Of a stretch of DNA of 64,000 nt, positions 5,161 through 53,207 are shown piece after piece. The DNA is from an endosymbiont of Galathealinum brachiosum (GTDB lineage: Bacteria > Pseudomonadota > Gammaproteobacteria > SZUA-229), in contig QFXC01000007.1 of the NCBI GenBank assembly GCA_003349885.1, forward strand, positions 269,125-333,124. Reading direction: 5' to 3'. The stretch's first letter is position 1. Each line of letters begins with the position of its first letter. The translations under genes and the position numbers were made by a program. A model generated the notes under the pieces. It had not been told where the DNA came from. It worked only from the letters and a program-made list of their open reading frames with translations, and did not search any database.

Positions 5161-5380
5161 GATGACGTCCTTCTGATCTATTATTTTGGTAAATAACGAT
5201 TTCAGACATTGCAGTAAATAAGAGAGATAATTGTCATTTTAATTGCTTTCTAATTATCTATATCGGCTTACTATTGTATTTCTTAAGCACCACCTGTAAA
5301 TTCATGACGAATAGAAAAAATAACCAGTTTTCAAACAGTAACCAGCTAAAATTTCTGCCTGTTTGCCCCCGGAGCCATTA

Positions 5381-25084: not shown

Positions 25085-26203
25085 ATGAATAAACGCACTC
25101 GCCAGATACCCCACAAAACCCTGATTTGCCTACTTTCAGCTATTTCAGCTTTATCGCTCACTGCCTGTGGCAATGATAATAACGAAGTAAAAGCGGAAGT
25201 TATCAGACCAGCAAAAATTATTACGGTTGGTGACCCTCTTGCAGGTGTACAAAGAGTTTATCCCGGTGAGGTAGAAGCAGGTGACCGCTCTGAACAGGCT
25301 TTTCGTGTGGGGGGTGAACTGGTTAAGTTACCTGCGAAAGCCGGCTTAAAAGTTAAAAAGGGGCAACTGTTAGCTCAACTGGATGCTTCAGATTTTCAGT
25401 TACGTGTTGATGAACAACAGGCCAGATTTGACTTAACACAGGTACAGTTTGACCGAACCGAAAAACTGGTAAAGCAGCAATTAATACCTATATCCGATTT
25501 CGATACAGCAAAATCCAATCTGCTTGCAGCTAAAGCAGATCTAAGATTAGCTAAAGCCAATTTATCTTATACAGAATTACGTGCACCTTTCGATGGCGTT
25601 GTTTCAAAATTAAATGTAAAAAACCATGAAAACGTTAGAAAAAATGAAGTTGTTCTAGTTATTCAAACAGTTAATGATATTGATATTACCTTTCAATTAT
25701 CTGAAAACATCATCTCGAGACTAAAAAAAGGCAGTGATCAAAAAGCCCAACCAAAAGTTGTGTTTGATACCTACCCGGATAAGTCTTATGAAACATCCGT
25801 GAAAGAGTTTGACTCTGAAGCAAACGCGACAACTCGAACTTACAAAGTGACCCTCACAATGCCGTCTCCTAAAGATTTTATTGCATTGCCAGGCATGAGT
25901 GTAAATGTACATTTAAATTTCAACAAACTTGTGGAGTCTGAAACAGCTAAAATAGTCATACCGATTGAAGCCGTTTATTCTCCTGAAAATGATAACCTTA
26001 AATCACGCAGCTATCAGGTATGGAAACTTGATAATGACACAATGAAAACTCAGGCAACTAAAGTAACCATTGGGCAAATTACCAGTTCCGGAATTGAAAT
26101 AACATCAGGGCTAACATCAGGGGATCAGGTAATTACTGCGGGTGTTAACTTCATAAAAGAAGGCCAGACAGTAAAACCCTGGGTAAAAGAAGCAGGGCTT
26201 TAA
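25085..26203 (+). CDS. RND efflux periplasmic adaptor (MFP) lipoprotein
   Basis: Lipobox LSLTAC, with coiled-coil and beta-barrel adaptor architecture. It lies directly upstream of an RND permease gene. Confidence 0.85.
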   Translation: MNKRTRQIPHKTLICLLSAISALSLTACGNDNNEVKAEVIRPAKIITVGDPLAGVQRVYPGEVEAGDRSEQAFRVGGELVKLPAKAGLKVKKGQLLAQLDASDFQLRVDEQQARFDLTQVQFDRTEKLVKQQLIPISDFDTAKSNLLAAKADLRLAKANLSYTELRAPFDGVVSKLNVKNHENVRKNEVVLVIQTVNDIDITFQLSENIISRLKKGSDQKAQPKVVFDTYPDKSYETSVKEFDSEANATTRTYKVTLTMPSPKDFIALPGMSVNVHLNFNKLVESETAKIVIPIEAVYSPENDNLKSRSYQVWKLDNDTMKTQATKVTIGQITSSGIEITSGLTSGDQVITAGVNFIKEGQTVKPWVKEAGL

Positions 26204-26292
26204 AGAAATCTGTCAGGATTTTATAAATGGAAGATATTAAGTTTATAACTTTAATATCCCTTATTTCTCTACACTTAAAGTAATTCAACGCT

Positions 26293-29200
26293 ATGAATAT
26301 TGCAGAATTTTCTATACGTAACAAACTAATCAGCTGGTTAATCACCATCATTTTTCTTATTGGTGGCGCTTTTGCTTACAGCAAATTATCCAGACTGGAA
26401 GATCCTGAATTTACAATTAAAGATGCAGTTATTGTCACCCAGTATCCCGGTGCATCACCACAGCAGGTAGAAGAAGAAGTCACCTATCCTCTGGAAAATG
26501 CCTTACAGCAATTACAGTATGTAGATTACATTCGCTCAGTTTCTACCAATGGTCTTTCACAGATAACCGTGACCATGAAGCGTCAATACAATAGTAATGA
26601 CCTGCCACAGATCTGGGATGAATTACGACGCAAAGTAAACGACCTGGCACCCAGCCTTCCCCCCGGTGTCCAGCCCCCCTTTGTTAATGATGATTTTGGC
26701 GATATATTCGGTTTATTATTTGCTGTAATCGGTGATGGATATAGCTATCAGGAATTAAATGATTATGTCGATTACCTGCGTCGTGAACTGGTACTCGTTG
26801 AAGGTGTAGGTAAAGTCACAGTTGCCGGCAAGCAACAGGAACAGGTATTTGTTGAAATTGCCCTTAGTCGAATGACGCAACTGGGCATACCTTATCAACG
26901 CATTTATGAAATTCTTGCCACACAGAATATTGTTTCAAATGCCGGTGCCATAAAAATTTCATCTGAAAACATACGCTTTCACCCAACAGGTGAATTTCAA
27001 AATGTAAAAGAACTGGAAGACCTGTTAATCAGTAGCCCCGGTGACCAGAACCTGCTTTATTTAAGAGATGTAGCCACTGTTAGTCGTGGTTTTCAGGAAG
27101 TACCCACTCACCTTATGTCCCTTGATGGACGACAGGCCATTTCTCTAGGTGTTTCATTTGCCTCAGGGTTTAATGTTGTTGATGTTGGTAAACGCATCGA
27201 CGATAAACTGAAGGAACTTGAATATGCACGCCCCTTAGGCATTGAGTTATCAACACTTTATGACCAGCCAAAACTGGTTGAGGCATCAATTAAAGCTTTT
27301 GCTGTCAACTTGCTTGAAGCCGTTGCTATTGTAATTATTGTACTGCTTGTTTTTATGGGCATACGAAGCGGATTATTGATCGGTTTAATCCTCTTTCTTA
27401 CGGTTATTGGCACCTTTACCTTTATGAAATTACAGGGCATTGATTTACAGCGAATTTCACTGGGCGCGCTGATTATTGCTCTCGGTATGCTGGTTGATAA
27501 TGCCATTGTTATTACTGAAGGCATACTCATTGGTATACAACGTGGTAAAACAAAAATAGAAGCTGCAAGCGCCATTGTAAAACAGGCAATCTGGCCTCTT
27601 TTAGGTGCGACGGTTATTGCGGTTACTGCATTTGCACCCATCGGTTTATCACAGGATTCTACCGGGGAAATGCTCGGTTCACTGTTTTATGTTCTGCTTT
27701 ATTCATTACTCCTGAGCTGGTTTACGGCAATCAGTTTAACGCCTTTCTTTGCAGATATGATTTTAAAAGACAAGGATTCCGACACAGATGACTCTGACCC
27801 ATATCAGGGAGCATTTTTTAAAGCCTTTAAAGGTGTACTGGATACCTGCTTAAGACATAAATGGATAACAGCTGGCACCACGGTTGGTTTACTGGTGCTC
27901 TCTATTTACGGATTTCAGCAGGTCAAAGTTGTTTTCTTCCCTGCAATGACAACACCGATGGTACTGGTTGATTACCGTAAAGAACATGGTACGGATATAC
28001 GCCAGACATTTAAAGAAATTCAGGCTGTAGAACAGTGGATATTACAACAGGACAACGTTGTGAAAGTAAGCTCAAATACGGGCAAAGGTGGCACACGTTT
28101 TATGCTGACTTACTCGCCAGAAAAAATATTTTCCAGCTATGGTCAGCTTATGGTTGAGTTCGAAGACTATAAACAGATTGACCCATTCATCGCATCAATC
28201 AGTCAGCATTTAGATGACCAGTATTCAGATGTAAATTATGACTTTAAAAAATTCGAATTAGGCCCCAGTAAAGACGGCAAAATAGAAGCCCGATTCTCTG
28301 GACCTGACCCGGATGTTTTACGTCGACTTTCCATTCAGGCAAAAGATATTTTACATCAACAACCGAATGTTGTGGGTATCCGCGATGACTGGAAAAAACG
28401 CACCAAGGTCGTTAGACCCCAGTTTTCTGAAGCTCAGGCCAGACGTGCAGGCATTAGTAAACAGGATCTTGATGACGTGTTACAAATGAGTTATTCAGGA
28501 AAATCTATCGGACTGTATCGTGATGGCACAACCCTGCTTCCCATCATTGCACGCCCACCTGAAGATGAACGTTCAAATATTGATACCATTCACAGCCTGC
28601 AAATATGGAGCCCTGTTTATGAACGTTATATTTCAATTGAACAGGTAGTGAGAGAGTTCACCGTTGAATGGGAAGATGCGGTTATTAATCGACGCGATAG
28701 AAAACGTACCATTACGATTATCGCAAATGCAAACCTGTTAGGCGAAGAGACATCTAACGATTTATACAAAAAAGTTAAACCCGCAATTGAAGCGATTGAA
28801 CTGCCAAAAGGTTACAGTTTAGTCTGGGGCGGTGAAGCAGAAAGTTCTGCGGATGCAAATGGAGCATTGATGGGGGCAATACCCATGGGGGTGATCGTTA
28901 TGTTTATCATTACCGTATTGTTGTTTAACACGATTAAACAACCATTGGTAATCTGGTCACTGGCTCCTATGGCCATTATTGGCGTGGCGTTTGGTTTATT
29001 AATTACCAACTCTGCATTTACCTTTATGGCGTTACTTGGTTTCATCAGTTTAGTAGGCATGTTACTTAAAAACGGTATCGTTCTGGTAGATCAGATCAAT
29101 CTGGAACTTCATGAAGGCAAACACCTTTATCACGCCATTTTTGATTCAGCTGTAAGTCGTGTTCGCCCCGTATCGATGGCTGCTGCAACAACTATTTTAG

Positions 29201-29352
29201 GTATGATTCCATTACTGTTTGATGCCTTTTTCTCATCCATGGCAGTAACGATTATGTTTGGTTTAGGTTTTGCTACGGTATTAACATTAATTGTTGTACC
29301 GGCAATCTATGCCATCGTTTATAAGGTTGAATATATTCCATTAGAAAAATAA
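26293..29352 (+). CDS. RND efflux permease (AcrB/HAE-1 family)
   Basis: 1019 aa with 12-TM topology and two large periplasmic loops. Confidence 0.9.
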   Translation: MNIAEFSIRNKLISWLITIIFLIGGAFAYSKLSRLEDPEFTIKDAVIVTQYPGASPQQVEEEVTYPLENALQQLQYVDYIRSVSTNGLSQITVTMKRQYNSNDLPQIWDELRRKVNDLAPSLPPGVQPPFVNDDFGDIFGLLFAVIGDGYSYQELNDYVDYLRRELVLVEGVGKVTVAGKQQEQVFVEIALSRMTQLGIPYQRIYEILATQNIVSNAGAIKISSENIRFHPTGEFQNVKELEDLLISSPGDQNLLYLRDVATVSRGFQEVPTHLMSLDGRQAISLGVSFASGFNVVDVGKRIDDKLKELEYARPLGIELSTLYDQPKLVEASIKAFAVNLLEAVAIVIIVLLVFMGIRSGLLIGLILFLTVIGTFTFMKLQGIDLQRISLGALIIALGMLVDNAIVITEGILIGIQRGKTKIEAASAIVKQAIWPLLGATVIAVTAFAPIGLSQDSTGEMLGSLFYVLLYSLLLSWFTAISLTPFFADMILKDKDSDTDDSDPYQGAFFKAFKGVLDTCLRHKWITAGTTVGLLVLSIYGFQQVKVVFFPAMTTPMVLVDYRKEHGTDIRQTFKEIQAVEQWILQQDNVVKVSSNTGKGGTRFMLTYSPEKIFSSYGQLMVEFEDYKQIDPFIASISQHLDDQYSDVNYDFKKFELGPSKDGKIEARFSGPDPDVLRRLSIQAKDILHQQPNVVGIRDDWKKRTKVVRPQFSEAQARRAGISKQDLDDVLQMSYSGKSIGLYRDGTTLLPIIARPPEDERSNIDTIHSLQIWSPVYERYISIEQVVREFTVEWEDAVINRRDRKRTITIIANANLLGEETSNDLYKKVKPAIEAIELPKGYSLVWGGEAESSADANGALMGAIPMGVIVMFIITVLLFNTIKQPLVIWSLAPMAIIGVAFGLLITNSAFTFMALLGFISLVGMLLKNGIVLVDQINLELHEGKHLYHAIFDSAVSRVRPVSMAAATTILGMIPLLFDAFFSSMAVTIMFGLGFATVLTLIVVPAIYAIVYKVEYIPLEK

Positions 29353-29406: not shown

Positions 29407-32400
29407 TCAATTAATAAGCTCTTTCAGATAAACGCCAGTATGAGACTTCTTACGTTTACAAATTATTTCAGGTTTACCCTGAGCCACAACTTTACCCCCG
29501 TATTTTCCACCTTCCGGCCCCATATCAATTACCCAGTCTGATTCCGCAATAACATCAAGATTATGCTCAATAACAATAACTGAATTACCCGCATCAACTA
29601 AACGATGTAAAACCCGTAACAATTTTTCCACATCCGCCATATGCAAACCCACCGTGGGTTCATCCAGAATATATAAATTATGCTGGCGAATTTTTGCCGT
29701 TGGACTGGTATTGGCTTTGGCCAGCTCTGCCACTAGCTTAATTCGTTGAGCCTCGCCTCCACTTAATGTCGGGCTTTGTTGGCCTAATGTTAAATAACCT
29801 AAACCAACATCCTGTAATAACTGTAATGCATGGTGCAATTTCGGAATAGCTGAAAAATATTCTGTGGCTGTTTTTACATTCATGCCAAGCACTTCACCAA
29901 TATGTTTGTCTTTATAACGAACTGACAACGTTTCATCATTAAAACGCCAGCCATGACAAACTTCACACTCCACCCTGACATCAGGAAGAAAATTCATTTC
30001 AACCTTACGCATACCGTGACCACCACAGGCATCACATCGACCATCACCCGCATTAAATGAAAAACGCCCGGGTTTGAATCCTTTTAATCGCGCATCAACA
30101 GTATCTGAAAATAGTTTTCGAATTGTATCCCAGATACCAATATAGGTTGCCGGACATGAACGTGGCGTTTTTCCAATAGGCGTTTGATCGACCTCCAGAA
30201 TTCTTTGTATAGATTCCCAGCCTTTAATCTCTTTACAGCCTTGCCAGCTAATTTTTTTATTACGCCCTGCTTTGCTTCGTTGATTATTTATCGCCGTTTT
30301 TAAGTTTCCATGTAAAACCGATCTAATCAATGTGCTTTTACCACTGCCACTCACACCAGAAACACTAACCAGTTTTCGTAAGGGTATAACAACCTCTATA
30401 TTTGTCAGATTATTCTGAACAGCACCTACTATTTTAATTTTCTCAGCTTCCAGTAATGAACGTTTTTCATTATCACGTAAATCATTCATCGGGTGACGCA
30501 GCGGACTTGAAATAAACTGCCCGGTTAATGATTTTTTATTCTTTATCATCTGCTTCAACGTACCGTGCGCGACAACTTCCCCCCCCTCTATTCCGGCGCC
30601 TGGCCCCATATCAATGAGATAATCGGCTTCACGAATGGTATCTTCATCATGCTCGACTACTAAAACTGTATTGCCCTGCTGCTGTATTTGACGAAGTGTT
30701 TTAATCAACCGCTGGTTATCACGCGCATGCAGGCCTATTGTCGGCTCATCTAAAATATAACAGACACCTTGCAAGTTAGAGCCTAGCTGTGATGCAAGAC
30801 GAATACGCTGTGCTTCACCACCACTTAAAGTTGGTGCAGATCGATCCAGTGTTAAATAATTCAAACCAACACGCTGCAGAAAACTTAAACGACCTGACAT
30901 CTCCTGTAATAAATCACGCGCAATTATCTGTTCTTTTTGTGTTAACTTTAATTTAGAAAACCATTTCTCCGAATCATCAACCGACATGGCTGCCAGCTGT
31001 GCAATAGACATCTTACGAAAACGTACCGCAAGAGCAGTTTCATTTAAGCGTTGACCATCACAGGTTTTACACTGCGTAGAAACATCATCTTCATTTTCTA
31101 ACCATGCTCCTTCTTCACCTGTCTGCTCTTCGTCGAAATCTTTTATTGTCTCACCCGTGCCATAACAGGAATCACACCAGCCATGTTTAGAGTTATAAGA
31201 AAACAAACGCGGATCCAGCTCATCAAAACCTTTACCACATGAAGGGCAGGCCCGTTCAGTTGAAAAAAGTCTTTCACCTACCTGTTTCTTTGTTGCTTTA
31301 AGCGGCTCAACAATAACGATACCATTACCTACATCTAATGCCTGCTGTAATAAATCAGCACATTCTTTTTCTTTATTGGCGGCTATTTTTAATTTCCCAA
31401 TGGGTAACTCAATATCATGCTCTTTATAACGGGCTAATTTAGGCCAGTCACTGGTTGATACATATTCGCCATCAACCCGTAACTGCTGATAACCTTTAGT
31501 ACTGGCCCATTTGGCCAGTTCGTTATAAATACCCTTACGCGCAACAACCATCGGTGCCAGTAAAGTAACTTCACGCCCACGATAATCTTTCTGCACCATG
31601 GCCAGAATGGCATCTAATGACTGAGGCTCTATTGCCACTTCACATTCAGGGCAATACTGTGTTCCCAGCTTCACGTAAAGCAAACGCATAAAGTGATAAA
31701 TTTCTGTTAATGTTGCAACGGTACTTTTACGTCCACCCCTGCTTGTACGCTGCTCAATAGCAACCGTAGGAGGAATGCCATGAATAGCATCCACGTCAGG
31801 CCGAGATGCGGGTTGTACAAACTGTCTAGCATAAGCATTTAACGACTCCAGATAACGCCGTTGTCCTTCGCCAAAAACAATATCAAATGCAACCGTACTT
31901 TTACCACTGCCACTCACTCCGGAGATAACGGTGAACTTATTACGGGGTATTTCAATATCTACATTTTTTAAATTATTTTCACGCGCATGATGAATTTGAA
32001 TAGACTGATTTACTTTTGTTTCTCGTGTATTAACCGGCAACGCTTTTATTAATTCGGTCTTTGATAAATTAAACGAAGCTTCATATTCACGTAATGCAAC
32101 TGAGGTATATGAGTCACCCTGCACCGCAATCTGCTGAGGGTAACCCTGTGTAACTAACTGCCCACCACCATCACCACCTTCCGGGCCAATATCGATTAAC
32201 CAGTCTGCACTGCGTATCACATCCAGGTTATGCTCAATCACCAATAGTGAATTACCCGCATCGATCAACTGCTGAAATGCTTTCATCAAGGTAGAAATAT
32301 CATCAAAGTGCAAACCGGTAGTTGGCTCATCAAATAGAAAAAGTGTGCCCTTAACCGTTTTTTTCAACTTTGATTTTTTTCCCGTCTGTTTTTTCTTATT

Positions 32401-35004
32401 AAGATTTTTGGCTAAATGCCCGGCTAACTTAAGCCGTTGTGATTCACCACCACTTAACGTAGGCACAGACTGGCCCAATTGAACATAATGCAAACCAACA
32501 TCAACGAGTGGTTGTAGCGTTTTAATCACTTCCGGCTCATCCGCAAAAAATAACAGAGCTTCAGCAACCGTCATTGCCAGAATGTCTGCAATTGATTTTG
32601 CCTGCCTATCACCTTCAACTATTTCACCGAATAATTTAACCTGCAAAATTTCTGCACGATAACGCTTACCATCGCAATCCGGGCAACGAATGTACACATC
32701 ACTCAAAAACTGCATCTCAACCATTTCAAAACCATTACCAGAACAGGTTGGGCAGCGTCCATTACCCGAGTTAAAACTAAACGTTCCCGGTGTGTACTTA
32801 CGTTCTTTAGAGAGTGGTTCAGCAATAAACAGTTTACGTATCGCATCAAATGCACCCACATACGTTGCCGGTATCGAGCGTGTGGTTTTTCCAATAGGAC
32901 TTTGATCAACAAGAACAACATCATCAACTAACTGATGACCTTTAACTTTCTTACAGACTCCGGGTGTTTCAACTGTTTTACCTTTGTGTTTGCATAACCA
33001 GGGGTAAAGAACATCTCGCATTAATGTCGATTTACCAGAACCACTGACACCGGTAATACAAACCAGCTGATGTAAGGGTATATCCACATCAATATTTTTT
33101 AAATTATGTTCACTTGCACCTATAATTTGAATAACCTGATTCTGTAACTGTTTTTCATTTTCCCCTGCTGTTTTTTCAGCAGGCTTACTCACACTTTTTT
33201 TACCGCTTAAATACTGTGCAGTCAGTGATTTTTTATTTCGCAACAACTGTTTAGGGCTTCCATAAAAACAGATTTCACCCCCAAGTCTCCCGGGCCCCGG
33301 GCCAATATCTAAAATTCGATCTGCTGCCAACATCACCTGCGGGTCATGCTCAACCACTAATAAGGAATTTCCCGCATCTCGCAAACGATGCAACACGGTA
33401 ACCAGTCTATTGACATCACGAGGGTGTAAACCAATACTGGGCTCATCAAGAACAAACAGAGTATTAACAAGTGATGTACCCAGAGCCGTAGTGAGATTAA
33501 TGCGCTGCACCTCCCCTCCGCTCAAGGTGCGAGACTGACGATCTAAGGTTAAATAACCCAGACCCACTTCTAACAGATAATTTAAACGTGAACGCACTTC
33601 ACTCAATAATAACTGTGCCGCTTCATCAATCGCAGAGGGTAATTTAATCAACTTAAAAAACTCAGCACAATCACTCAACGGTAAATGCATAACATCATGC
33701 ACCGTCAGTCCTGGCAACTTCTCAATGTCTTTTTTAGATAAGTTCAAACCTTTAGGTGTTAATCGCCGATTAACATCGATGACTTTATTTGATAACTCAA
33801 GGCTACCCAGACGCCACCATAAAGCCGGTGCTTTTAATCTGGCACCATCGCAGGTACCACAGGGTGTATACGAACGATATTTTGAGAGCAACACACGAAT
33901 GTGCATTTTATAAGATTTACTTTCCAGCCATTTAAAAAATCGCTGAATACCAAACCATACGCCATCATCCCAGTCCCCCTCACCTTCGATTACCCAACGC
34001 TGCTGTTTTTTAGTGAGTTTTTTCCAGGGGATATCGATAGGTATTTTAGATTTTTTGGCAAACTTTATAAGCTCATCCTGAACTTCAATATAACTTGGTG
34101 TCTGAATTGGTTTTACCGCACCCTCTTTTAATGATTTTGATTCATCCGGAATAACCAGACCATAATCAACACCAATAATTCGCCCAAAGCCCTTACAGCT
34201 TTCACAGGCACCGATGGGGGAATTAAATGAAAACAGACTCGGGCTGGGTTCACCATAATCAATATCACAATCAGGACAATGATGATGACTTGAAAAACGC
34301 AGCGCTTTACCGGCTTTTTTATTTTCATCTAACGGAAATACATGCACCCGTCCATTTGCATGATTTAGAGACGCTTCAACGGCTTCTGTTAACCTGCCTT
34401 TATTTTCTTCATTAAGCTTGAAACGATCCTGAATAACCTCTAATAAACTTCCATCTCGTTTATGTATACGGGTATAACCCTGTTGATTTAATAAACCTAC
34501 GATTTCATCTTCAGTGAAGTTGTGGGGTATTTTCACCGGCAAACAAACCATTACCCTCTGGTTATCAGCCATCACCGCATACAAGCTTTCTACAATGCTC
34601 TGAGATGAATCACAGAGCACTTCACGACCACACCCTGAACAATACAACTGAGCCATACGGGCAAATAGCAGTTTTAAGTAATCATTTAACTCTGTCATTG
34701 TGCCAACAGTCGAACGGGATGTGCGAACCGGATTAGTCTGATCAATCGCTATCGCAGGAGGTATGCCCTGAATACTGTCTACAGATGGCTTGTCCATACG
34801 ATCGAGAAACTGACGTGCATACGCTGAAAAGGTCTCTACATAACGTCTCTGACCTTCTGCATAAATCGTATCAAATGCCAGAGTTGATTTACCTGAGCCA
34901 CTCACCCCTGTCACCACGATAAGCTCGTTAGTGGGCAATTCAAGATCGAGGTTTTTCAGGTTATTCTGGCGAGCGCCTTTAACAATGATAGATTCTTTGC
35001 TCAT
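29407..35004 (-). CDS. Tandem-fused double UvrA (two complete excinuclease ABC subunit A units in one 1865-aa chain)
   Basis: Residues ~1-900 and ~930-1865 each start with a UvrA N-terminus (VKGARQNNLKNLDLELP / IHHARENNLKNVDIEIP). Each has two Walker A motifs (GVSGSGKST, four in total) and two LSGGE signatures (four in total). Each retains Zn-finger Cys clusters and the region that aligns to the E. coli UvrB-binding domain. The linker is in frame and about 30 aa long. Confidence 0.85.
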   Translation of the reverse strand: MSKESIIVKGARQNNLKNLDLELPTNELIVVTGVSGSGKSTLAFDTIYAEGQRRYVETFSAYARQFLDRMDKPSVDSIQGIPPAIAIDQTNPVRTSRSTVGTMTELNDYLKLLFARMAQLYCSGCGREVLCDSSQSIVESLYAVMADNQRVMVCLPVKIPHNFTEDEIVGLLNQQGYTRIHKRDGSLLEVIQDRFKLNEENKGRLTEAVEASLNHANGRVHVFPLDENKKAGKALRFSSHHHCPDCDIDYGEPSPSLFSFNSPIGACESCKGFGRIIGVDYGLVIPDESKSLKEGAVKPIQTPSYIEVQDELIKFAKKSKIPIDIPWKKLTKKQQRWVIEGEGDWDDGVWFGIQRFFKWLESKSYKMHIRVLLSKYRSYTPCGTCDGARLKAPALWWRLGSLELSNKVIDVNRRLTPKGLNLSKKDIEKLPGLTVHDVMHLPLSDCAEFFKLIKLPSAIDEAAQLLLSEVRSRLNYLLEVGLGYLTLDRQSRTLSGGEVQRINLTTALGTSLVNTLFVLDEPSIGLHPRDVNRLVTVLHRLRDAGNSLLVVEHDPQVMLAADRILDIGPGPGRLGGEICFYGSPKQLLRNKKSLTAQYLSGKKSVSKPAEKTAGENEKQLQNQVIQIIGASEHNLKNIDVDIPLHQLVCITGVSGSGKSTLMRDVLYPWLCKHKGKTVETPGVCKKVKGHQLVDDVVLVDQSPIGKTTRSIPATYVGAFDAIRKLFIAEPLSKERKYTPGTFSFNSGNGRCPTCSGNGFEMVEMQFLSDVYIRCPDCDGKRYRAEILQVKLFGEIVEGDRQAKSIADILAMTVAEALLFFADEPEVIKTLQPLVDVGLHYVQLGQSVPTLSGGESQRLKLAGHLAKNLNKKKQTGKKSKLKKTVKGTLFLFDEPTTGLHFDDISTLMKAFQQLIDAGNSLLVIEHNLDVIRSADWLIDIGPEGGDGGGQLVTQGYPQQIAVQGDSYTSVALREYEASFNLSKTELIKALPVNTRETKVNQSIQIHHARENNLKNVDIEIPRNKFTVISGVSGSGKSTVAFDIVFGEGQRRYLESLNAYARQFVQPASRPDVDAIHGIPPTVAIEQRTSRGGRKSTVATLTEIYHFMRLLYVKLGTQYCPECEVAIEPQSLDAILAMVQKDYRGREVTLLAPMVVARKGIYNELAKWASTKGYQQLRVDGEYVSTSDWPKLARYKEHDIELPIGKLKIAANKEKECADLLQQALDVGNGIVIVEPLKATKKQVGERLFSTERACPSCGKGFDELDPRLFSYNSKHGWCDSCYGTGETIKDFDEEQTGEEGAWLENEDDVSTQCKTCDGQRLNETALAVRFRKMSIAQLAAMSVDDSEKWFSKLKLTQKEQIIARDLLQEMSGRLSFLQRVGLNYLTLDRSAPTLSGGEAQRIRLASQLGSNLQGVCYILDEPTIGLHARDNQRLIKTLRQIQQQGNTVLVVEHDEDTIREADYLIDMGPGAGIEGGEVVAHGTLKQMIKNKKSLTGQFISSPLRHPMNDLRDNEKRSLLEAEKIKIVGAVQNNLTNIEVVIPLRKLVSVSGVSGSGKSTLIRSVLHGNLKTAINNQRSKAGRNKKISWQGCKEIKGWESIQRILEVDQTPIGKTPRSCPATYIGIWDTIRKLFSDTVDARLKGFKPGRFSFNAGDGRCDACGGHGMRKVEMNFLPDVRVECEVCHGWRFNDETLSVRYKDKHIGEVLGMNVKTATEYFSAIPKLHHALQLLQDVGLGYLTLGQQSPTLSGGEAQRIKLVAELAKANTSPTAKIRQHNLYILDEPTVGLHMADVEKLLRVLHRLVDAGNSVIVIEHNLDVIAESDWVIDMGPEGGKYGGKVVAQGKPEIICKRKKSHTGVYLKELIN

Positions 35005-35364
35005 AAATACTCTGTGATAAGGTGTGAATTAACCAGCAGATAAATATACGGGATATTCACCAACTTTCATATATGAAAAAGTTGAATGATATCGTCAAAC
35101 TAGTGACGTCGTACAGCCAGTAACTAAATCCCCCATAAAACAGATGTCTTTATGTAGGCACTCCTTTAGGACACAATCAATACGCATAAATAACAATGAT
35201 ATTGCTCACCTAAAGAAACACCTACAATATACCGCATCCAGAATAAATCGATACAGTGAACAGTTATTGCTATTATTAGTGTATATTTATCTCTGATCAC
35301 AGATAAGTTCAATGAGGCACTGAAACAATTGACTAAAAAATAAAAAAGGCAATAAGCAGGCTCT

Positions 35365-36129
35365 ATGAACTTAAATAAAAAAGAACAGATATGTCAATTA
35401 TTGAAAGGTATAGAAACCGGTGACCCATCAGCGGTAGCTATAGTCAATGAAGATAAGTATATACAGCACAATCCACAAACGCATGAAGGCAGTGAAGGAC
35501 TAGCAGTACTTTTTAAGCGTCTATCTGAAACATCGCCTAAAGTAAATATTGTGCGCATTTTTGAAGATAATGATTTTATTTTCGGTCACACAGAGTATGA
35601 CTTTGCAACTCGGAATATAGGTTTTGAAATATTTCGATTTGAAGACGGCCAGGCAGTTGAACACTGGGATAATATCCAGAAAAGACAAGGACCTAATAGC
35701 TCTGGAAACACTATGGTCGATGGCATAACAGAAGCCACAGATCATGAGTTAACAGAAATTAACCGAACAATAATTATATCTTTTACTGATGATGTGCTTA
35801 TTCATAAACACATTATTCAACTGGGTGATTATATAAACCAGAAGCACTATACTGAGCATAGTCCACACCTTGGCAACGATCTGACCGAACTACGTATGGC
35901 CTTATCCCAATCCAATTCTAGTTGTTTTTCAATCAGTTATGAGAAATGCCATCGTATATTAGCTGAAGGCAATTTTGTTCTGAGCGTTTGTGAAGGTAAT
36001 GTTAATAAAATTTCATCATCTTTCTTTGACCTATACCGCTTAGAGAACAGAAAAATTGTAGAGCATTGGGGCACGATAGAAAAAATTCCAACTCGTAGCG
36101 AATGGAAAAATAACAACGGCAAGTTCTAA
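35365..36129 (+). CDS. Tandem SnoaL-like (NTF2-fold) polyketide-cyclase/ester-cyclase-like protein
   Basis: Two repeats, each ending in VEHWD/VEHWG, which is typical of the SnoaL_2 family. Confidence 0.5.
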   Translation: MNLNKKEQICQLLKGIETGDPSAVAIVNEDKYIQHNPQTHEGSEGLAVLFKRLSETSPKVNIVRIFEDNDFIFGHTEYDFATRNIGFEIFRFEDGQAVEHWDNIQKRQGPNSSGNTMVDGITEATDHELTEINRTIIISFTDDVLIHKHIIQLGDYINQKHYTEHSPHLGNDLTELRMALSQSNSSCFSISYEKCHRILAEGNFVLSVCEGNVNKISSSFFDLYRLENRKIVEHWGTIEKIPTRSEWKNNNGKF

Positions 36130-36178: not shown

Positions 36179-36541
36179 ATGATTAAATTTATTATGTGTA
36201 TTACACGTCACCCTGACATGTCACGCGAAGAATTTAAAGAGTACTGGATGAATAAACATGGCCCTTTCTTCATGGATAACGCAGAAGCAATGGGTGCAAA
36301 AAAATATGTGCAATCACACACTCTAAATACACCTTTGAATGAAGGTTTAAGAACCTCAAGAGGGATGTTACCTGAGTATGACGGTGTTGCTGAAGTCTGG
36401 TTCGAATCAGAACAGGCGCTTATGGATGGAATGAACTCTCCTGAAGGCCAGAAACTTGGTGTAGCATTAATGAAAGATGAAGGTAATTTTATCGATCATA
36501 CAAAATCTTCTGCTTTCATTGTTGAAGAACACGAATTCTAA
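36179..36541 (+). CDS. EthD-domain protein
   Basis: N-terminus is MIKFIMCITRHPDMSREEFKEYWMNKHGP. This is a characteristic EthD-family N-terminus. AAGGAG RBS. Confidence 0.55.
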   Translation: MIKFIMCITRHPDMSREEFKEYWMNKHGPFFMDNAEAMGAKKYVQSHTLNTPLNEGLRTSRGMLPEYDGVAEVWFESEQALMDGMNSPEGQKLGVALMKDEGNFIDHTKSSAFIVEEHEF

Positions 36542-37960: not shown

Positions 37961-39394
37961 TTAAGGTTCTACATCCATACCGTCATTATTAGAGTTATAC
38001 AGTACTCCGATAGCGACAAACTCTTCTATATTTGATATTAAAATATCCACAAGATCTGGATCAAAATGGGAACCACTTTCTTTTTCTACCCATGATATAA
38101 CATCATCCAATGGCCATGCTTTTTTATAATGTCGCTCTGATAACAGTGCATCATAAACATCAGCCAAAGCCACAATTCTTCCATATACGTGTATATCATT
38201 TTGCCTTAACCCCCAGGGATACCCACTACCATTCCATTTTTCATGGTGCTGATGCGCTATTATGGCTGCTGCTTTTAGTATGTCGCGTTTCGAATGTGAA
38301 AGCATCGAATAGCCAATGGCAGGATGGTTCTGCATGGTTTCAAATTCTTCAGTTGTTAACTTGCCCGGCTTAAAAAGTATTGAATCAGGAATTCCCAGTT
38401 TACCTATATCATGCAAAGGTGCAGCTGAAGCAATTAATTCTACATCTCTATTCGACAGACCTAATTTAGTTGCTAATAATTTACTGTATTCCGTTACTCG
38501 TCGAGTATGATTTTTTGCTTCTTTTGAACGCTGCTCTTCAATTACACCCATGGTAAAAACTGTTTCTCTTAAGGTGTCTTCAATTTCATTATTAAGCTCT
38601 AACAAATTAAAATTGAGCTGTTTAAGCATGTCCTGATTAGCAATAATATCTTTATTGAAATGATTTATTTCTTTTGCAACGTTTTCAAACTCAACCGTTG
38701 TAAATGTTTCTGAGTTGACCGGCTCATGTGTTACATAAGCATCTTTTGCTTTTACGATGAGGTTTTCAAGAGGATCTTTTATGTAAACCTGAACCGTTCT
38801 TAATGTATTAATAGCGATTAATAATATAATGGTTAATGAAGCTACCAGCAGCACCATTAATAACCATGAAGCCATACTGCGGTACTTGGTAATATCTAAT
38901 GTGATATCAACAGCACCCAATACAGTACCTTCAGAAACCTGATGACAATCAAGGCAGTTAAGTCTCCCCTGATTTGTAGCTATGTAAGGCATAACAGCAC
39001 GAATTGAAGGTATTATGCCGAAATCATCTATTATGAATTCCGGCTGTTTTGTCTCAAATACTTTTTTGACTATCTCACCTGCCTCTTTTTCGAGCTGACT
39101 AACACCAAATTGCCTGTTAACAGCAGGCGCCCGAATTATTTCAATCTCACTGATATCATGCACTGTTTTTATTTCATTTAAAAAGAAACTTCTTTTATCC
39201 ATAACATCTGCTTTCATATGGGCCGTTAAACCTGCTTTTATAATATCTGCAATGGATGTTGCTTCATTTTTAACAATATTATGAGAAAGCATTCTGAAAT
39301 TAAATGCAATAACAACAGACATCACAACAGCTGCCAACAATAGAAATGACAATAATCGACTTAAGGTAATGGTCTTAATGCTGGGTTTTATCAT
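37961..39394 (-). CDS. Membrane-bound HD-GYP c-di-GMP phosphodiesterase with periplasmic sensor domain carrying a CXXCH heme-c motif
   Basis: TM1, a periplasmic region of about 140 aa containing RLNCLDCHQ, and TM2. The cytoplasmic HD-GYP domain contains HDIGKLGIP ... HHEKWNGSGYPWGL. Confidence 0.85.
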   Translation of the reverse strand: MIKPSIKTITLSRLLSFLLLAAVVMSVVIAFNFRMLSHNIVKNEATSIADIIKAGLTAHMKADVMDKRSFFLNEIKTVHDISEIEIIRAPAVNRQFGVSQLEKEAGEIVKKVFETKQPEFIIDDFGIIPSIRAVMPYIATNQGRLNCLDCHQVSEGTVLGAVDITLDITKYRSMASWLLMVLLVASLTIILLIAINTLRTVQVYIKDPLENLIVKAKDAYVTHEPVNSETFTTVEFENVAKEINHFNKDIIANQDMLKQLNFNLLELNNEIEDTLRETVFTMGVIEEQRSKEAKNHTRRVTEYSKLLATKLGLSNRDVELIASAAPLHDIGKLGIPDSILFKPGKLTTEEFETMQNHPAIGYSMLSHSKRDILKAAAIIAHQHHEKWNGSGYPWGLRQNDIHVYGRIVALADVYDALLSERHYKKAWPLDDVISWVEKESGSHFDPDLVDILISNIEEFVAIGVLYNSNNDGMDVEP

Positions 39395-39752
39395 AATGAG
39401 TTTTATTTAGTCTGATCCCTATACCTTATAGCTGCTTCTTTAGACATATCAAGATCATTAACGAGCTTAAAACACTCTATATTAAGCTATATCAACTATT
39501 TATAGATAACCGGATCGTAACTGGCAAATCAACCGACCTAACTCATTGAAAAATCATATTCTAAGCAAAAAAGAGATAAACAAGCTATAACACCATATAA
39601 GCAGAAGTTATGATTATTAGATATCTCAGCTCTCCTTAAGTATACAGTTACACCTGAACAACGTTCCGAATAAAACAGGTGTATTTGAGTATTTAAAAAA
39701 TATAAATCCAGACCAGATCTTTGTAGTCACCAATAATGAGATGTAACTATTA

Positions 39753-41411
39753 ATGAAGTTATTTTTATGTTTTATACTTGTTTGTATAATCCACCCCGTT
39801 CAAGCATCACAAACACCTTTAGATTTATCAACCCCTCAACATAACATTGGACAATCAATGATCGTGTATGAGGATATTGATGCCGGGATGAATTTTGAGC
39901 AAATACGTTTATTAACTAATGATGATTTCTATAGATTAAAACAAAGCATCTTTAGCACTCCTTTTAGCCAGTCAGCCTACTGGTTTAAGCTCTCTTTAAA
40001 TAATACAGAAACATCTGCAGTTACGCGTCTGATTGTTTTTGAGCCACCCTGGCTTGATCATATCAATATAAGCATCATTTCACCTGGCGGCAATATCAAA
40101 CAGATTGAACTGGGAAATACATTTAATTATGAGAAAAGAGGAATAGACCATTCTTTAATTAATTTTAAACACATGTTCGAACCCGGTGAATCTATTGTTT
40201 TCATGCAGGTTAAAACACGGGATCCTTTTGTATTTGCTGTTTCCATACTTGCAGAGCGTGATTTTCTATTCGAACAGATGCGGGAATCTAAAAAAACTGG
40301 ATTTTTATATGGTGTAATGATCGCCCTGCTTTTATACAATTTATTTCTATATATTGGAATTAAAGAAAACTATTATTCTTATTATGTGCTTTTCGTAAGT
40401 GCTTTTTTAATCATGAACGCTTCATACAATGGTTATACTTTTAAGCTATTATTTTCACAAATCCCAGTATTGCAAACCTGGATTCAGAGTTTTTCTATTA
40501 TTCTATTTTCACTAACTGGCTTATTATTTGCTCAATCATTTCTAAATCTAAAAAAATTCCATCCTCAACTTAATACGTTAACTAAAAACATAATTATAGG
40601 CTACGCAGTTGTAGCTGTATTTTCTGCTGTTTTAAGCGGTTACACCTTAAATGTTATTATTGCTGTTTCATTCGCTGGTTTTATCAGTGCTTATATTTTT
40701 TCTATTGCTCTGTATTCATGGAAAAGTGGAAACAGATCTGCACGTTTTTTCATAATGGGATCAGCCAGCGGATTAATAGGTACTATAGTCACTTCTAGTA
40801 GCGTAATGGGAATAATTCCATTTAGCTACATTACCTATAAAGCACTCGATTTCGGCATGTTAATTGACGCCGTATTTTTATCACTAGCTTTAGCTGATCG
40901 TGTAAGAATAACAAATAATGATAAATTAAAAGCCGAGCAGGCGTCTCTCACTGATGTGTTAACCGGCCTGAAAAATCGTCGCTCTTACTATGAAACACGA
41001 ACACAGGAATTACATCGAATTGCCCGATACAAAAACAAACTTTCCATGATTACCCTGGATGTAGATCAGTTTAAACACTTTAATGATAATTTTGGACATG
41101 ATGTAGGTGATCAGGTTTTAAAACATCTGGCAACAATTCTGGAAAAATCTAAACGTCAGGATGACTATGTATTCAGAATGGGTGGTGACGAGTTTTTACT
41201 CTTATTACCCGAGACAGATAAAGAAGAAGCTTCTCAACTAGCGGAACGAATAGCGACTACACTTGAAAATGAACGCTTAATTATAAATGACACCATACAC
41301 AGAGTACATATATCCTCAGGCGTCGCTGAATTTTTACCCGATGACACCTCTATGAAAAGCGTAGAAAAAAGAGCCGATATTGCTCTGTATGAAGCAAAAG
41401 AAAGCACCTAA
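39753..41411 (+). CDS. 7TMR-DISM (extracellular DISMED2 + 7TM) diguanylate cyclase (GGDEF)
   Basis: Signal peptide, an extracellular domain, seven TM helices, and a C-terminal GGDEF domain (RMGGDEFLLLL). Confidence 0.85.
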   Translation: MKLFLCFILVCIIHPVQASQTPLDLSTPQHNIGQSMIVYEDIDAGMNFEQIRLLTNDDFYRLKQSIFSTPFSQSAYWFKLSLNNTETSAVTRLIVFEPPWLDHINISIISPGGNIKQIELGNTFNYEKRGIDHSLINFKHMFEPGESIVFMQVKTRDPFVFAVSILAERDFLFEQMRESKKTGFLYGVMIALLLYNLFLYIGIKENYYSYYVLFVSAFLIMNASYNGYTFKLLFSQIPVLQTWIQSFSIILFSLTGLLFAQSFLNLKKFHPQLNTLTKNIIIGYAVVAVFSAVLSGYTLNVIIAVSFAGFISAYIFSIALYSWKSGNRSARFFIMGSASGLIGTIVTSSSVMGIIPFSYITYKALDFGMLIDAVFLSLALADRVRITNNDKLKAEQASLTDVLTGLKNRRSYYETRTQELHRIARYKNKLSMITLDVDQFKHFNDNFGHDVGDQVLKHLATILEKSKRQDDYVFRMGGDEFLLLLPETDKEEASQLAERIATTLENERLIINDTIHRVHISSGVAEFLPDDTSMKSVEKRADIALYEAKEST

Positions 41412-44500: not shown

Positions 44501-44714
44501 CACTAATCAATTGCTCAACATCACTCGCGGATGCACCGGGAAAAGCGATAAAAACATTTGCGAAGGTTACATTGATTTGCGGCTCCTCTTCACGGGGAGT
44601 AATCATTACCGCAAAAATGCCTAATAGAAAACCTAACAACGCGAGCAATGGAGTGATCTCGGTATTTAAAAAATACTGAGCGACCTTACCTGAGATACCG
44701 AGATTGTTATTCAT
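41514..44714 (-). CDS. RND efflux permease (second system)
   Basis: 1066 aa with 12-TM RND architecture. Confidence 0.9.
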   Translation of the reverse strand: MNNNLGISGKVAQYFLNTEITPLLALLGFLLGIFAVMITPREEEPQINVTFANVFIAFPGASASDVEQLISVPAEQVLSEIEGIKHIYSVSRPGMSVLTVQFKVGEDRTQAIVRLYNTVYSNQDWLPQGLGVAQPIIKPKGIDDVPIVAMTLWTKDESHGRYELTKVAHAIEAELKRVPGTRDIYTKGAANDVVQILLDATTLAAYKLSVSDLENALRASNSSDRSGQLISDNNQVEVQSGQFLSSVSEVKDLVVGMHNDKPIYLRDVAQVKRGAVHPEQTSWFGVGAGSDLNQKNIHGEYPAVTLAIAKQPGTNAVEIANQVIERVEQLKGVFIPDNVEVTITRNYGLTADAKSKQLIGKLAFATTFVVLLVLFALGWREAIIVGLAVVITLAITLFASWAWGFTLNRVSLFALIFSIGILVDDAIVVVENIHRHMQLGGKSFKESIPLAVDEVGGPTILATFTVIAALLPMAFVTGMMGPYMSPIPINASLGMLISLVVAFVVTPWLAYKVLAGQSHSQSEVENEEDSKLYVFFNKYLAPFLSGEKGQSNRRKLFIGILALLISSVALVGFKQVVLKMLPFDNKSEFQVIVDMPEGTTLEKTTRVLGELGRVIAKVPEVSNYQVYAGDAAPINFNGLVRQYYLRQQANEGDIQVNLLDKSERDKKSHEIARDLRDPLQLIGKKYNANIKIVEVPPGPPVMSPLVAEIYGLNYSGQHKVAKDIRKVFDNTADVVDVDDTIEAEADKIIIHVDQQKAAMAGVTQQQIVSLISTVVKGQDVSYLHTGNMKYPLPLRLQFKVEDRARVDSLLSLRVHNRDGKLIPLSEMVRIENTKIEYAIYHKDLLPVVMVTGDTSGDLDSPLYGMFDIMAKLTKDKPLLQQHMIDQPENPYQYSMKWDGEWQITYETFRDMGIAYSVGLILIYFLVVAQFRSYLVPLIIMAPIPLTIIGVMPGHALLGAQFTATSMIGMIALAGIIVRNSILLVDFINQQVEQGMAFEKAVINAGAVRAKPIVLTGLAAMLGAFFILDDPIFSGLAISLIFGILVSTLLTLVVIPVMYYALMRNRV

Positions 44715-52906: not shown

Positions 52907-53207
52907 TATCAAACTCTATATTTTGAATATTGCTTACCGTTATTTATGGCTGTAGGCTAATGATAGCATTTCATTAACCTACATGTATTTTATAAATTGT
53001 AGTGTAAAACAACTGAATAATTGGCGTTTATCAAAATATTTAGGCAACATTTAAATAATCAGGTAAATGTCTGCTTTTGAGGTTTTTAAAGGATTATTTC
53101 GTTTTTGTTGAAGACTGCTTATGGCTAGTTGGAGAACCTGGCTTGCCGATACAAATTTAGAAATAACAAATAACTGCTTTCACCCTAAAGCAGAAGTTGA
53201 AGGCATT

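Follow-up and report, generated by a model that had tools for sequence, protein, structure and literature searches.

A single ORF is located at positions 29407–35004 of the window, which is the whole 64-kb stretch of DNA that was analysed. According to the ORF list and the translation, it lies on the minus strand, runs from ATG to stop and encodes 1865 aa plus the stop codon. The number of stop codons inside the ORF is 0 over 5595 nt. The complete ORF was assigned as a single-chain double UvrA from its translation, its UvrA equivalog scores and an identical GenBank entry. That entry, 'MAG: excinuclease ABC subunit A [endosymbiont of Galathealinum brachiosum]', is 100% identical to the window protein. 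UvrA unit 1 (aa 1–975, 32080–35004, minus strand) was delimited by its motifs and by alignment to B. stearothermophilus and E. coli UvrA. Besides both ABC modules and three zinc modules, it has a UvrB-binding-type domain of reduced length and the protein's sole insertion domain. UvrA unit 2 (aa 1002–1865, 29410–32001, minus strand) was delimited by HMMER alignment, AF2 and Foldseek. Here, too, both ABC modules and three zinc modules are found, together with a UvrB-binding domain of full length, but there is no insertion domain. An earlier note on this DNA had put the second UvrA N-terminus after about 930 aa. The actual start is at aa ~1002, and the two N-terminal peptides that it quoted are present, VKGARQNNLKNLDLELP at aa 8–24 and IHHARENNLKNVDIEIP at aa 1004–1020. 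The two units are not identical and share roughly 36–42% identity with each other. They are joined by a linker of 26 aa (aa 976–1001, 32002–32079, minus strand), placed by alignment of relatives. In the relatives this linker is about 25–45 aa long and has no conserved sequence; on average it is 14% identical to that of the window protein, while the ABC cores reach 71–89%. The linker is likely a flexible tether.

The Walker A motif GVSGSGKST was found at aa 33, 652, 1029 and 1550, and the LSGGE signature at aa 494, 850, 1393 and 1747. This agrees with the four copies of each that had been reported in one 1865-aa ORF, for which the strand (minus) had not been given. There are also four Q-loops, four H-loops and 12 CxxC pairs. 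The latter correspond to six zinc modules, three per unit, and bear out the Cys clusters described for both halves; zinc module 1 is present in each. All four ATPase sites are intact in Walker A, Q-loop, signature, Walker B and H-loop. The four Walker A motifs, four signatures, four Q-loops, four H-loops and 12 CxxC pairs are invariant in 34 relatives from three phyla, and the Walker B Asp-Glu and the H-loop His are present in both units of nearly all of 100 double UvrAs. The whole protein scored 2113 bits against the NCBIfam UvrA equivalog NF001503 (cutoff 1147) and 2044 bits against TIGR00630 (cutoff 729.8). Unit 1 alone gave 943 and 942 bits, and unit 2 alone 1146.8 and 1078.8 bits, respectively. 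The UvrA equivalog matches of both halves had E = 0 or ~1e-283, and a chance match is therefore excluded. Unit 1 aligns in one stretch with residues 22–865 of B. stearothermophilus UvrA. Its identity to E. coli UvrA is 40–44%, and that of the units overall is 40–49%. The AF2 model of unit 2 (pLDDT 78, pTM 0.69) matched class-I UvrA structures in Foldseek with TMq of 0.74–0.78. For both units the PDB bit scores were 730–870 for class-I UvrAs, 532–546 for D. radiodurans UvrA2 (2VF7) and about 440 for Ecm16 (7SH1). By these alignment scores, both units appear closer to class-I than to class-II UvrA. Class-II UvrA is without the UvrB-binding domain and zinc module 1 (PMC9328131). Both units of the window protein, unlike class II, keep a UvrB-binding-type domain and zinc module 1. 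The possibility raised before, that the halves are class-II proteins lacking the UvrB-binding domain, is not borne out. The claim that each half looks like a class-I UvrA stood in terms of the PDB scores; it did not hold in full, as unit 2 is without the insertion domain and the UvrB-binding domain of unit 1 is shortened.

The asymmetry begins with the UvrB-binding domains. In unit 1, a short UvrB/Mfd-binding-type domain (aa 126–240, 34285–34629, minus strand) was identified by Pfam, alignment, AF2 and Foldseek. Its alignment to E. coli UvrA shows a 16-aa deletion, and Pfam UvrA_inter matches it only partially (33.8 bits, profile positions 71–105 only). The domain is modelled by AF2 with pLDDT of 88–94, and Foldseek gave a TM of 0.72 against the isolated UvrB-binding-domain chains of UvrA, 4dfc_B and 3fpn_A. 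In the alignment, R204 and E210 are the equivalents of R216 and E222, which form the UvrB/Mfd interaction surface of E. coli UvrA (PMC3025350). Across 31 sequences, R204, L205, E207 and E210 do not vary. The UvrB-binding domain of unit 2 (aa 1128–1234, 31303–31623, minus strand; Pfam and alignments) matches UvrA_inter with 103 bits over profile positions 1–106 of 109. At the positions of E. coli R216 and E222, R is replaced by E and E by Q, and both positions are variable across the family. The earlier note had claimed that the UvrB-binding segment is kept in both halves. The peptides on which this relied, CLPVKIPHNF (aa 154–163) and LLAPMVVARKG (aa 1148–1158), are present and the fold is found in both units, but in unit 1 it is shortened by 16 aa. 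As a separate observation, the UvrB-binding domain of unit 2 is well conserved despite the missing canonical contact pair.

The second difference concerns the insertion domain. The sole one in the protein lies in unit 1 (aa 272–381, 33862–34191, minus strand), as judged from the alignment and from Pfam UvrA_DNA-bind at aa 280–344, and its mean family identity is 74%. Deletion of the insertion domain lowers damage discrimination (PMC3025350). Insertion domains also coordinate and melt DNA in an interplay with the UvrB-binding domain (PMC11985968). In unit 2, target residues 308–424 of C. thermocellum UvrA have no counterpart in the HMMER alignment, and the insertion domain of about 110 aa is replaced by an acidic loop of about 25 aa. 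This loop (aa 1284–1311, 31072–31155, minus strand; family alignment and AF2) carries the motif FDEEQTGEE..W, which is kept in the members from Gammaproteobacteria and Spirochaetota, with a different sequence in the Lentisphaerales member. F, Q, G, E, E and W of the loop are invariant in 31 sequences. The loop is predicted to be disordered because its AF2 pLDDT is 41–57. The conserved difference between the two units, rather than the fusion itself, is the standout feature of the protein.

The fused protein belongs to a large family. More than 120 clusters of 1835–2055 aa showed 66–86% identity over the full length with 100% coverage, and several of them are from closed contigs of 3.6–5.6 Mb of isolates. 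These are homologues of about 1850 aa of the kind for which a survey had been suggested; the neighbourhoods of the genes were not conserved. Among the 150 best representatives at 50% identity, about 130 have lengths of 1550–2343 aa; they come from several bacterial phyla and Heimdallarchaeota. The layout with both domains in unit 1 and unit 2 without an insertion domain is shared by 34 of the 82 scored 50%-identity representatives, and the insertion domain is missing from unit 2 throughout the window protein's own family. Both insertion domains are retained in 32 double-UvrA representatives of other lineages, and some other double-UvrA lineages are without one or both UvrB-binding domains. In the unit tree, the unit-1 and unit-2 clades match, which is consistent with a single old fusion followed by co-evolution. 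Across double UvrAs as a whole, the fusion of UvrA units seems to have arisen more than once. A 'uvrA' on the Ralstonia solanacearum megaplasmid has 56% identity to the window protein. This homologue in GMI1000 (1945 aa) matches the window protein in architecture and residue pattern, and canonical uvrA is absent from the megaplasmid that carries it. The Ralstonia chromosome presumably carries the canonical uvrA. The databases already list some related entries as 'Excinuclease ABC subunit A, dimeric form', and within that large, known but uncharacterised family, in whose members the fusion is conserved, the window protein is typical. The single-chain tandem double UvrA described in the earlier note is genuine, while the novelty that it implied did not survive; an identical protein is in GenBank, the name is in use and double UvrAs are abundant, so the fusion is not new. 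The full-text literature search found neither a fused UvrA nor a 'class III' UvrA described, and no experiment on any fused UvrA. UvrA homologues have reportedly been classified beyond class II by Goosen and Moolenaar (2008) and by Marszalkowska et al. (2013).

The gene is placed between RND efflux genes at 25085–29352 and 41514–44714, and it adjoins a SnoaL-like gene (35365–36129) and an EthD gene (36179–36541). Other window neighbours include c-di-GMP genes. These coordinates confirm the position that had been described, flanked by two RND efflux operons and adjacent to the SnoaL-like/EthD genes. The upstream intergenic region (35005–35364), shared with the divergent SnoaL-like gene, was scanned for LexA boxes and promoters. 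As had been noted before, it has no match to CTGT-N8-ACAG with one mismatch or fewer, and by this measure the gene does not belong to the SOS regulon. The promoter/terminator scan found only weak promoter-like sites at chance level in 35005–35364, and nothing above chance. A canonical uvrA was not found in the 64-kb window. An all-against-all ORF comparison of 30 related loci showed synteny within close clades only. The neighbours in relatives are TauE, acyl-CoA dehydrogenase, histidine kinase, cellulase and aldo-keto reductase, and those of the Ralstonia homologue are cytochrome oxidase genes and DctA. Neither uvrB, uvrC nor any other repair gene was a conserved neighbour among the related loci. 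The efflux/SnoaL setting is considered incidental because the gene neighbours are not conserved in relatives. A functional link to the neighbours was rejected, since the synteny is confined to close clades and the neighbour genes are unrelated. The accessory, drug-tolerance reading that had been drawn from the efflux, SnoaL and EthD genes falls for the same lack of conservation.

Taken as a protein of the UvrA type, the product is probably a functional single-chain UvrA, namely an ATP-driven, intramolecular pseudo-dimeric damage sensor that would work with UvrB. Most probably, the two diverged units fold back on each other to give a head-to-head assembly like that of two canonical UvrA protomers. 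In such a pseudo-dimer, all four ATPase sites would be active, and there would be six zinc modules and a single composite DNA-binding groove. The halves may be specialised because exchange between them is no longer possible. Unit 1 would provide the only insertion domain, for damaged-DNA discrimination and melting, and the compact UvrB/Mfd-docking domain with the Arg/Glu contact pair. Unit 2 would have lost the insertion domain and gained the acidic disordered loop instead, next to a full-size domain of the UvrB-binding fold in which the contact pair is not conserved. Damaged or distorted DNA would be recognised in an ATP-dependent manner and then handed over to UvrB, probably with one UvrB per molecule. 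UvrA2UvrB1 complexes exist (PMC11985968). In that case, nucleotide excision repair would have an additional, stand-alone sensor in this protein. The sequence data show the architecture, the intact motifs, their conservation and the asymmetry; we infer the intramolecular packing, the engagement and stoichiometry of UvrB, and the status of a paralogue rather than the sole copy.

A bolder proposal is a division of labour fixed by the fusion and impossible in a homodimer. According to it, unit 1 would hold the single insertion domain together with the only canonical UvrB/Mfd docking surface, and unit 2 the remodelled docking-fold domain and the acidic loop. This proposal is speculative and we consider it doubtful. 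If true, exactly one UvrB would be loaded per molecule in a fixed orientation, and a natural asymmetric UvrA could reveal how the symmetric UvrA2UvrB2 picks the UvrB and hence the strand. The acidic loop of unit 2 might serve for DNA mimicry, auto-inhibition or the recruitment of another partner.

Among the other explanations, the protein could be a UvrB-independent DNA protector like DrrC/Ecm16, which would bind DNA distorted by a ligand or intercalator, displace the ligand with ATP and be linked in function to the neighbouring efflux pumps. In its favour, two RND efflux operons flank the gene, which adjoins the SnoaL-like and EthD genes, a LexA box is absent upstream and the canonical UvrB contact pair is lost in unit 2. 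Moreover, Ecm16 gives echinomycin resistance without UvrA, UvrB, UvrC and UvrD (PMC9328131). However, both units retain what class II has lost and give far better scores with class-I structures than with DrUvrA2 or Ecm16, the equivalents of R216/E222 are invariant in unit 1, the efflux/SnoaL context is missing in relatives and there is no biosynthetic cluster nearby. A protector of this kind is unlikely.

It is rather unlikely, too, that the protein is the organism's only UvrA, a fused replacement as in Chlamydia that performs housekeeping nucleotide excision repair. NCBI curates a UvrA equivalog of 1809 aa, NF001885/PRK00635, and double-length UvrAs are therefore accepted as genuine UvrA. We take this model to represent Chlamydia, where the double-length protein is presumably the sole UvrA. 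The whole window protein is above the canonical UvrA cutoffs, and the 64-kb window is without a canonical uvrA. On the other hand, the window is less than 2% of the 3.77-Mb genome, the gene lies outside the usual uvrA-ssb setting, and the location of the Ralstonia homologue on a megaplasmid suits an extra copy if the chromosome has the canonical uvrA. NF001885/PRK00635 is likewise a double-length single chain and is colinear with the window protein across the junction (aa 431–1029 against model positions 417–968). Nevertheless, the window protein is of a different lineage, and membership in the Chlamydia-type equivalog was rejected by score, as its 1149 bits fall short of the 3054 required. 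The cutoff is also missed by five other representatives, 1783–1809 aa in length.

That the protein acts in anti-phage defence, within a system akin to MADS, whose mad3 and mad8 are UvrA-like ATPases, is very improbable. PADLOC models match the protein (mad3 500 bits, mad8 240 bits), but the matches are confined to the shared ABC modules. The three neighbours tested gave 0 defence matches, the remaining ones are RND, SnoaL, EthD and c-di-GMP genes, and no multi-gene island is conserved around the relatives. Membership in such a system, which would call for a multi-gene mad cluster around the UvrA-like ATPase genes, was rejected. Finally, an artefact, in which the assembly was wrongly joined or an overlooked stop or frameshift merged two adjacent uvrA paralogues, has a negligible probability: two relatives (L021 and L016) look split, but the split in L021 (Spirochaetota) is a 1-nt frameshift in the linker beside a C run, past which the linker frame resumes, the window ORF is open throughout, 21 of the 30 related loci hold one ORF of 1836–1981 aa, and because the fusion is conserved in the more than 120 independent clusters of the same length and full coverage, several on closed isolate genomes, both an assembly join and two adjacent genes were rejected.

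Canonical UvrA is a symmetric homodimer. The roles of its two protomers, four ATP sites and two UvrB docking sites are hard to separate because of this symmetry. Compared with canonical class-I UvrA (E. coli; 2R6F, 3PIH, 3ZQJ, 9GXK), the window protein has the same two-module ABC core, three zinc modules and UvrB-binding fold per unit. In contrast, a single chain of 1865 aa takes the place of the homodimer of polypeptides of about 940 aa, and the window protein has one insertion domain per assembly, where E. coli has residues 290–400 in each protomer. Of its two counterparts of the UvrB-binding domain (E. coli residues 131–248), one is shortened and one is without the R216/E222 pair. The ssb neighbour and the LexA box of the canonical gene are absent as well. 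Class-II UvrAs (D. radiodurans UvrA2, DrrC, Ecm16) are similar in being UvrA-derived ATPases additional to, or apart from, the classical uvrA locus, and their role is likewise uncertain. They are single units of about 750–840 aa, whereas the window protein has two. ArsA-type pseudo-dimers also arose by a tandem duplication that turned a homodimeric nucleotide-hydrolysing protein into a single chain with halves free to diverge. The likeness is an analogy only; their ATPase family is unrelated to UvrA.

The window gene alone adds little, as the exact sequence is deposited and fused UvrAs are widespread. The single-chain UvrAs nevertheless form a large, diverse group, for which the literature searched gave no experimental study. 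In many of them the asymmetry is conserved, with a single insertion domain and a single canonical UvrB/Mfd contact pair. Such a natural covalent heterodimer is a direct handle on the problem of protomer roles. Experiments are practical because the 56%-identical homologue of the same layout is carried on the megaplasmid of Ralstonia pseudosolanacearum GMI1000, a model bacterium that is genetically tractable.

Two further segments of unit 1 were compared among relatives. The Lys-rich insertion claimed for the second ABC module is present as a loop between signature II and Walker B (NLNKKKQTGKKSKLKKTVKG, aa 867–886, 32347–32406, minus strand). It is not a conserved feature; in relatives the loop has 10–32 aa with a K+R fraction of 0.15–0.43, and it was rejected as a functional feature since both its sequence and its length are variable. 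A lineage-specific insertion of about 31 aa lies after zinc module 2 (aa 398–432, 33709–33813, minus strand), with a mean family identity of 30%. It is missing from the Pseudomonadales, Spirochaetota and Lentisphaerae members and is found in the closer gammaproteobacterial relatives.

The double UvrA was encoded on the minus strand of the window (29407-35004) by one ORF of 1865 aa, running from ATG to stop. Against the NCBIfam models, the whole protein scored 2113 bits on NF001503 (cutoff 1147) and 2044 bits on TIGR00630 (cutoff 729.8), while its score on NF001885 (1149) missed the cutoff of 3054. When the halves were scored separately on the UvrA equivalog NF001503, unit 1 gave 943 bits and unit 2 gave 1147 bits, which confirmed the claim of the earlier note that one ORF holds two UvrA units. 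The peptides quoted there were all found in the protein. The four Walker A motifs (aa 33, 652, 1029, and 1550) and four LSGGE signatures (aa 494, 850, 1393, and 1747) were likewise located by position. Neither these motifs nor the four Q-loops, four H-loops, and 12 CxxC pairs vary among 34 family members, which represent three phyla. However, the second UvrA N-terminus, which had been placed at about 930 aa, actually starts at aa ~1002. The protein consists of unit 1 (aa 1-975), an inter-unit linker (aa 976-1001), and unit 2 (aa 1002-1865). Its four ATPase sites are all intact, it has six zinc modules, and most of the signature-II DNA-binding positions are occupied by basic residues. By curated score it qualifies as a UvrA and is expected to work like one.

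The best structure matches of both units were the class-I UvrAs 2R6F, 3PIH, 3ZQJ, and 9GXK (730-870 bits). Scores with the class-II structures were lower for both units, namely 532-546 bits for 2VF7 and about 440 bits for Ecm16 (7SH1). The identity between the two units is about 36-42%, no closer than that of either unit to E. coli UvrA (40-49%). The proposal that each half is class-I-like was thus borne out by the structure scores but not by the accessory domains, because unit 2 has no insertion domain and the UvrB-binding region of unit 1 is shortened. Unit 1 aligned to B. stearothermophilus UvrA in a single stretch and contains the sole Pfam insertion-domain match of the protein (UvrA_DNA-bind, aa 280-344). 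A 16-aa deletion shortens its UvrB-binding region, and the Pfam match covers the last third of the model only (33.8 bits). Despite the deletion, this region is conserved among relatives; its AF2 pLDDT is 88-94, and it superposes on the isolated UvrB/Mfd-binding domains of UvrA, 4DFC_B and 3FPN_A, with a TM of 0.72. R204 and E210 of unit 1 are invariant and correspond to R216 and E222 of E. coli UvrA; when both of the latter are substituted, the surface that interacts with UvrB is disrupted (PMC3025350). Unit 2 has a full UvrB-binding domain (aa 1128-1234, Pfam 103 bits), with E and Q at the equivalent positions, which are variable across the family. In the wider lineage, the contact arginine is kept by unit 1 in 16 of 19 representatives and by unit 2 in three of 19. 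At the place of the missing insertion domain in unit 2, the HMMER alignment jumps residues 308-424 of C. thermocellum UvrA. The gap is occupied by a short loop that carries FDEEQTGEE..W, an acidic stretch (aa 1290-1298, window 31111-31137) with a Trp behind it. This motif is kept in gammaproteobacterial and Spirochaetota members, although disorder is predicted for the loop (AF2 pLDDT 41-57). The whole unit 2 model matched class-I UvrA structures with TMq values of 0.74-0.78. The loss and retention of accessory domains are complementary between the units, and this pattern is conserved. The linker has a mean identity of 14% versus 71-89% in the ABC cores and a length of roughly 25-45 aa among relatives; it is an unconstrained, free tether between the units. 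The Lys-rich insertion described in the first half is present as a stretch, but the loop it forms is variable in relatives, with 10-32 aa. Only the closer gammaproteobacterial relatives share a 31-aa insertion that follows zinc module 2 in unit 1.

Our analysis moderately favours a repair sensor as the role of the window protein. By analogy with known UvrA, the two units would pair intramolecularly as in the UvrA2 dimer, and distorted DNA would be sensed in an ATP-dependent manner. UvrB or Mfd would then be recruited, most probably via the domain of unit 1. The resulting complex would be intrinsically asymmetric and comparable to the UvrA2UvrB1 intermediate observed by cryo-EM (PMC11985968). 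Having a single insertion domain, the protein may discriminate damage differently from the canonical enzyme; E. coli UvrA discriminated less well once its two insertion domains were deleted (PMC3025350).

[quoted passage not shown] A role as the sole housekeeping UvrA of the organism is also considered unlikely. The window protein departs from class-I UvrA, a homodimer of a ~940-aa chain with an insertion domain in every protomer, in being a single chain of 1865 aa whose unit 2 has none. A component of a MADS-like defence system was suggested by PADLOC matches to mad3 (374 positions, 500 bits) in the first ABC module and to mad8 (314 positions, 240 bits) in the second. However, the matches are confined to the shared ABC modules and the three neighbours tested gave no defence hits, so there is very little chance of this role; the UvrA-like ATPase of MADS seems to be split over two proteins and to be devoid of UvrB-binding and insertion domains. 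Separately, many plasmids of Enterobacter, Klebsiella, Acinetobacter, Pantoea, lactic-acid bacteria, and Streptomyces carry a single UvrA-like gene of ~1.9-2.3 kb (H32-H70), annotated merely as 'excinuclease ABC subunit UvrA'. The match of these genes begins near aa 258 or aa 323, and they look like the class-II type without a UvrB-binding domain.

Among about 5.8 billion proteins searched, a GenBank entry with 100% identity was found. The published assembly of the Galathealinum brachiosum symbiont is 3.77 Mb long with an N50 of 726.6 kb and 38.9% GC (PMC10300362), and the GC content of the window is ~0.38. Apart from this entry, at least 120 clusters (90% identity, 1835-2055 aa) matched at 66-86% identity along the entire length, including isolates on contigs of 3.6-5.6 Mb (Maricurvus, Marinimicrobium, and Gilvimarinus). 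In GTDB species genomes, 30 loci were recovered, 21 of which have a single ORF of 1836-1981 aa. The gammaproteobacterial loci belong to Cellvibrionaceae, Teredinibacter, Thiotrichaceae, and Pseudomonadales; identities were 59-61% for Spirochaetota, 51-53% for Lentisphaerae, and 46% for a truncated Desulfobacterales copy. Two loci appear split, both in Spirochaetota MAGs whose isolate names contain MFD and which we take to be nanopore-based. In L021 (12830-12940), a 1-nt frameshift lies in the linker beside a C run and the linker frame resumes past the break, and in L016 (near 14500) a single frameshift breaks the protein at aa ~1500. Both are probably sequencing errors or pseudogenes rather than an unfused ancestor. 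An artefact of assembly or annotation is hardly conceivable, since closed genomes conserve the fusion. Several entries from vent metagenomes bear the name "Excinuclease ABC subunit A, dimeric form", and the window protein is a typical member of this fused family in GenBank and SEED-style annotation. The gene is real, conserved, and already catalogued, an ordinary example of a type that is known but uncharacterised. Experimental or descriptive papers on fused UvrAs were not found in the full-text literature searched. Older reviews are said to list extra UvrA classes.

With aa 430-1560, which spans the junction, as the query, an exhaustive HMMER search covered 1.84 billion representatives at 50% identity. 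About 130 of the best 150 matches are 1550-2343 aa long. Layouts were scored by aligning each unit to E. coli UvrA (U, UvrB-binding domain; I, insertion domain; i, partial insertion domain; units 1 and 2 stand left and right of the bar) in the 82 scorable representatives, leaving out a ~1600-aa set. The layout of the window protein, UI|U-, was found in 34 and UI|UI in 32, followed by UI|Ui (five), U-|UI (four), UI|-I (four), and singletons including -I|-I. Named carriers include Heimdallarchaeota, "bacterium HR30", Ozemobacteraceae, and Planctomycetes. The Heimdallarchaeota MAGs (P0134 and its cluster) carry a 1916-aa double UvrA with both domains in both units; therefore, fused UvrAs occur in Asgard archaea too. 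In a rough neighbour-joining tree of the separated units, the unit-1 and unit-2 clades of the window lineage match, which points to one old fusion with both the UI|U- and UI|UI layouts inside it. Other double lineages were placed elsewhere, so fusion is probably recurrent. The representatives P0127 and P0128 (2334-2343 aa) have two complete units and ~400 extra residues; their units group with E. coli UvrA, which suggests a separate, more recent fusion.

By tblastn against plasmids, 134 megaplasmid records from the Ralstonia solanacearum complex gave a full-length homologue with 56% identity, and a further homologue was found in Caballeronia. Where annotated, the Ralstonia homologue is called "uvrA", and none of these 134 records bears a canonical uvrA. 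The homologue of Ralstonia pseudosolanacearum GMI1000 (L033, 1945 aa, NC_003296.1 1248556-1254393) has the layout UI|U-, as in the window protein. GMI1000 is a genetically tractable plant pathogen. The conserved asymmetry between the units and this tractable homologue are worth keeping.

The neighbours were correctly described as RND efflux, SnoaL-like, and EthD genes, and HD-GYP-type and GGDEF genes follow. None of them recurs beside the genes of relatives, in the related loci or in Ralstonia, so the supposed accessory block between efflux operons looks incidental. Neighbourhoods are conserved within close clades only, with unrelated genes, and the window gene behaves as a stand-alone unit. 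As noted before, no LexA box lies upstream of the gene, even with up to one mismatch allowed. The promoter and terminator scans were at chance level, as were the CTGT-N8-ACAG matches in the window (23 observed versus 19 expected). The only perfect one (50932-50947) is within the ORF of a hybrid histidine kinase (50318-52912).

The remaining window is ordinary chromosome with ylqF, sbcB, a chemoreceptor gene, accA, tilS, and signalling genes. Only one further clear gene of DNA metabolism was found there, that for exodeoxyribonuclease I (sbcB, 11020-12468, plus strand, 668 bits). A TrpD2/YbiB-like protein (48075-49061, plus strand) reached 420 bits with NF006564 and 149 bits with the model of the DNA-binding protein YbiB; ybiB is LexA-regulated in E. 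coli. Signalling by c-di-GMP is represented by a cluster at 37961-41411, with an HD-domain (HD_5) protein and a 7TMR-DISM GGDEF cyclase, and by a response-regulator GGDEF-EAL protein (61302-62996). Weak matches below the curated cutoffs were obtained for a GvpN-like AAA protein (5363-6199, plus strand, 71 bits) and, with multihaem cytochromes, for a 764-aa protein (55083-57377, minus strand).
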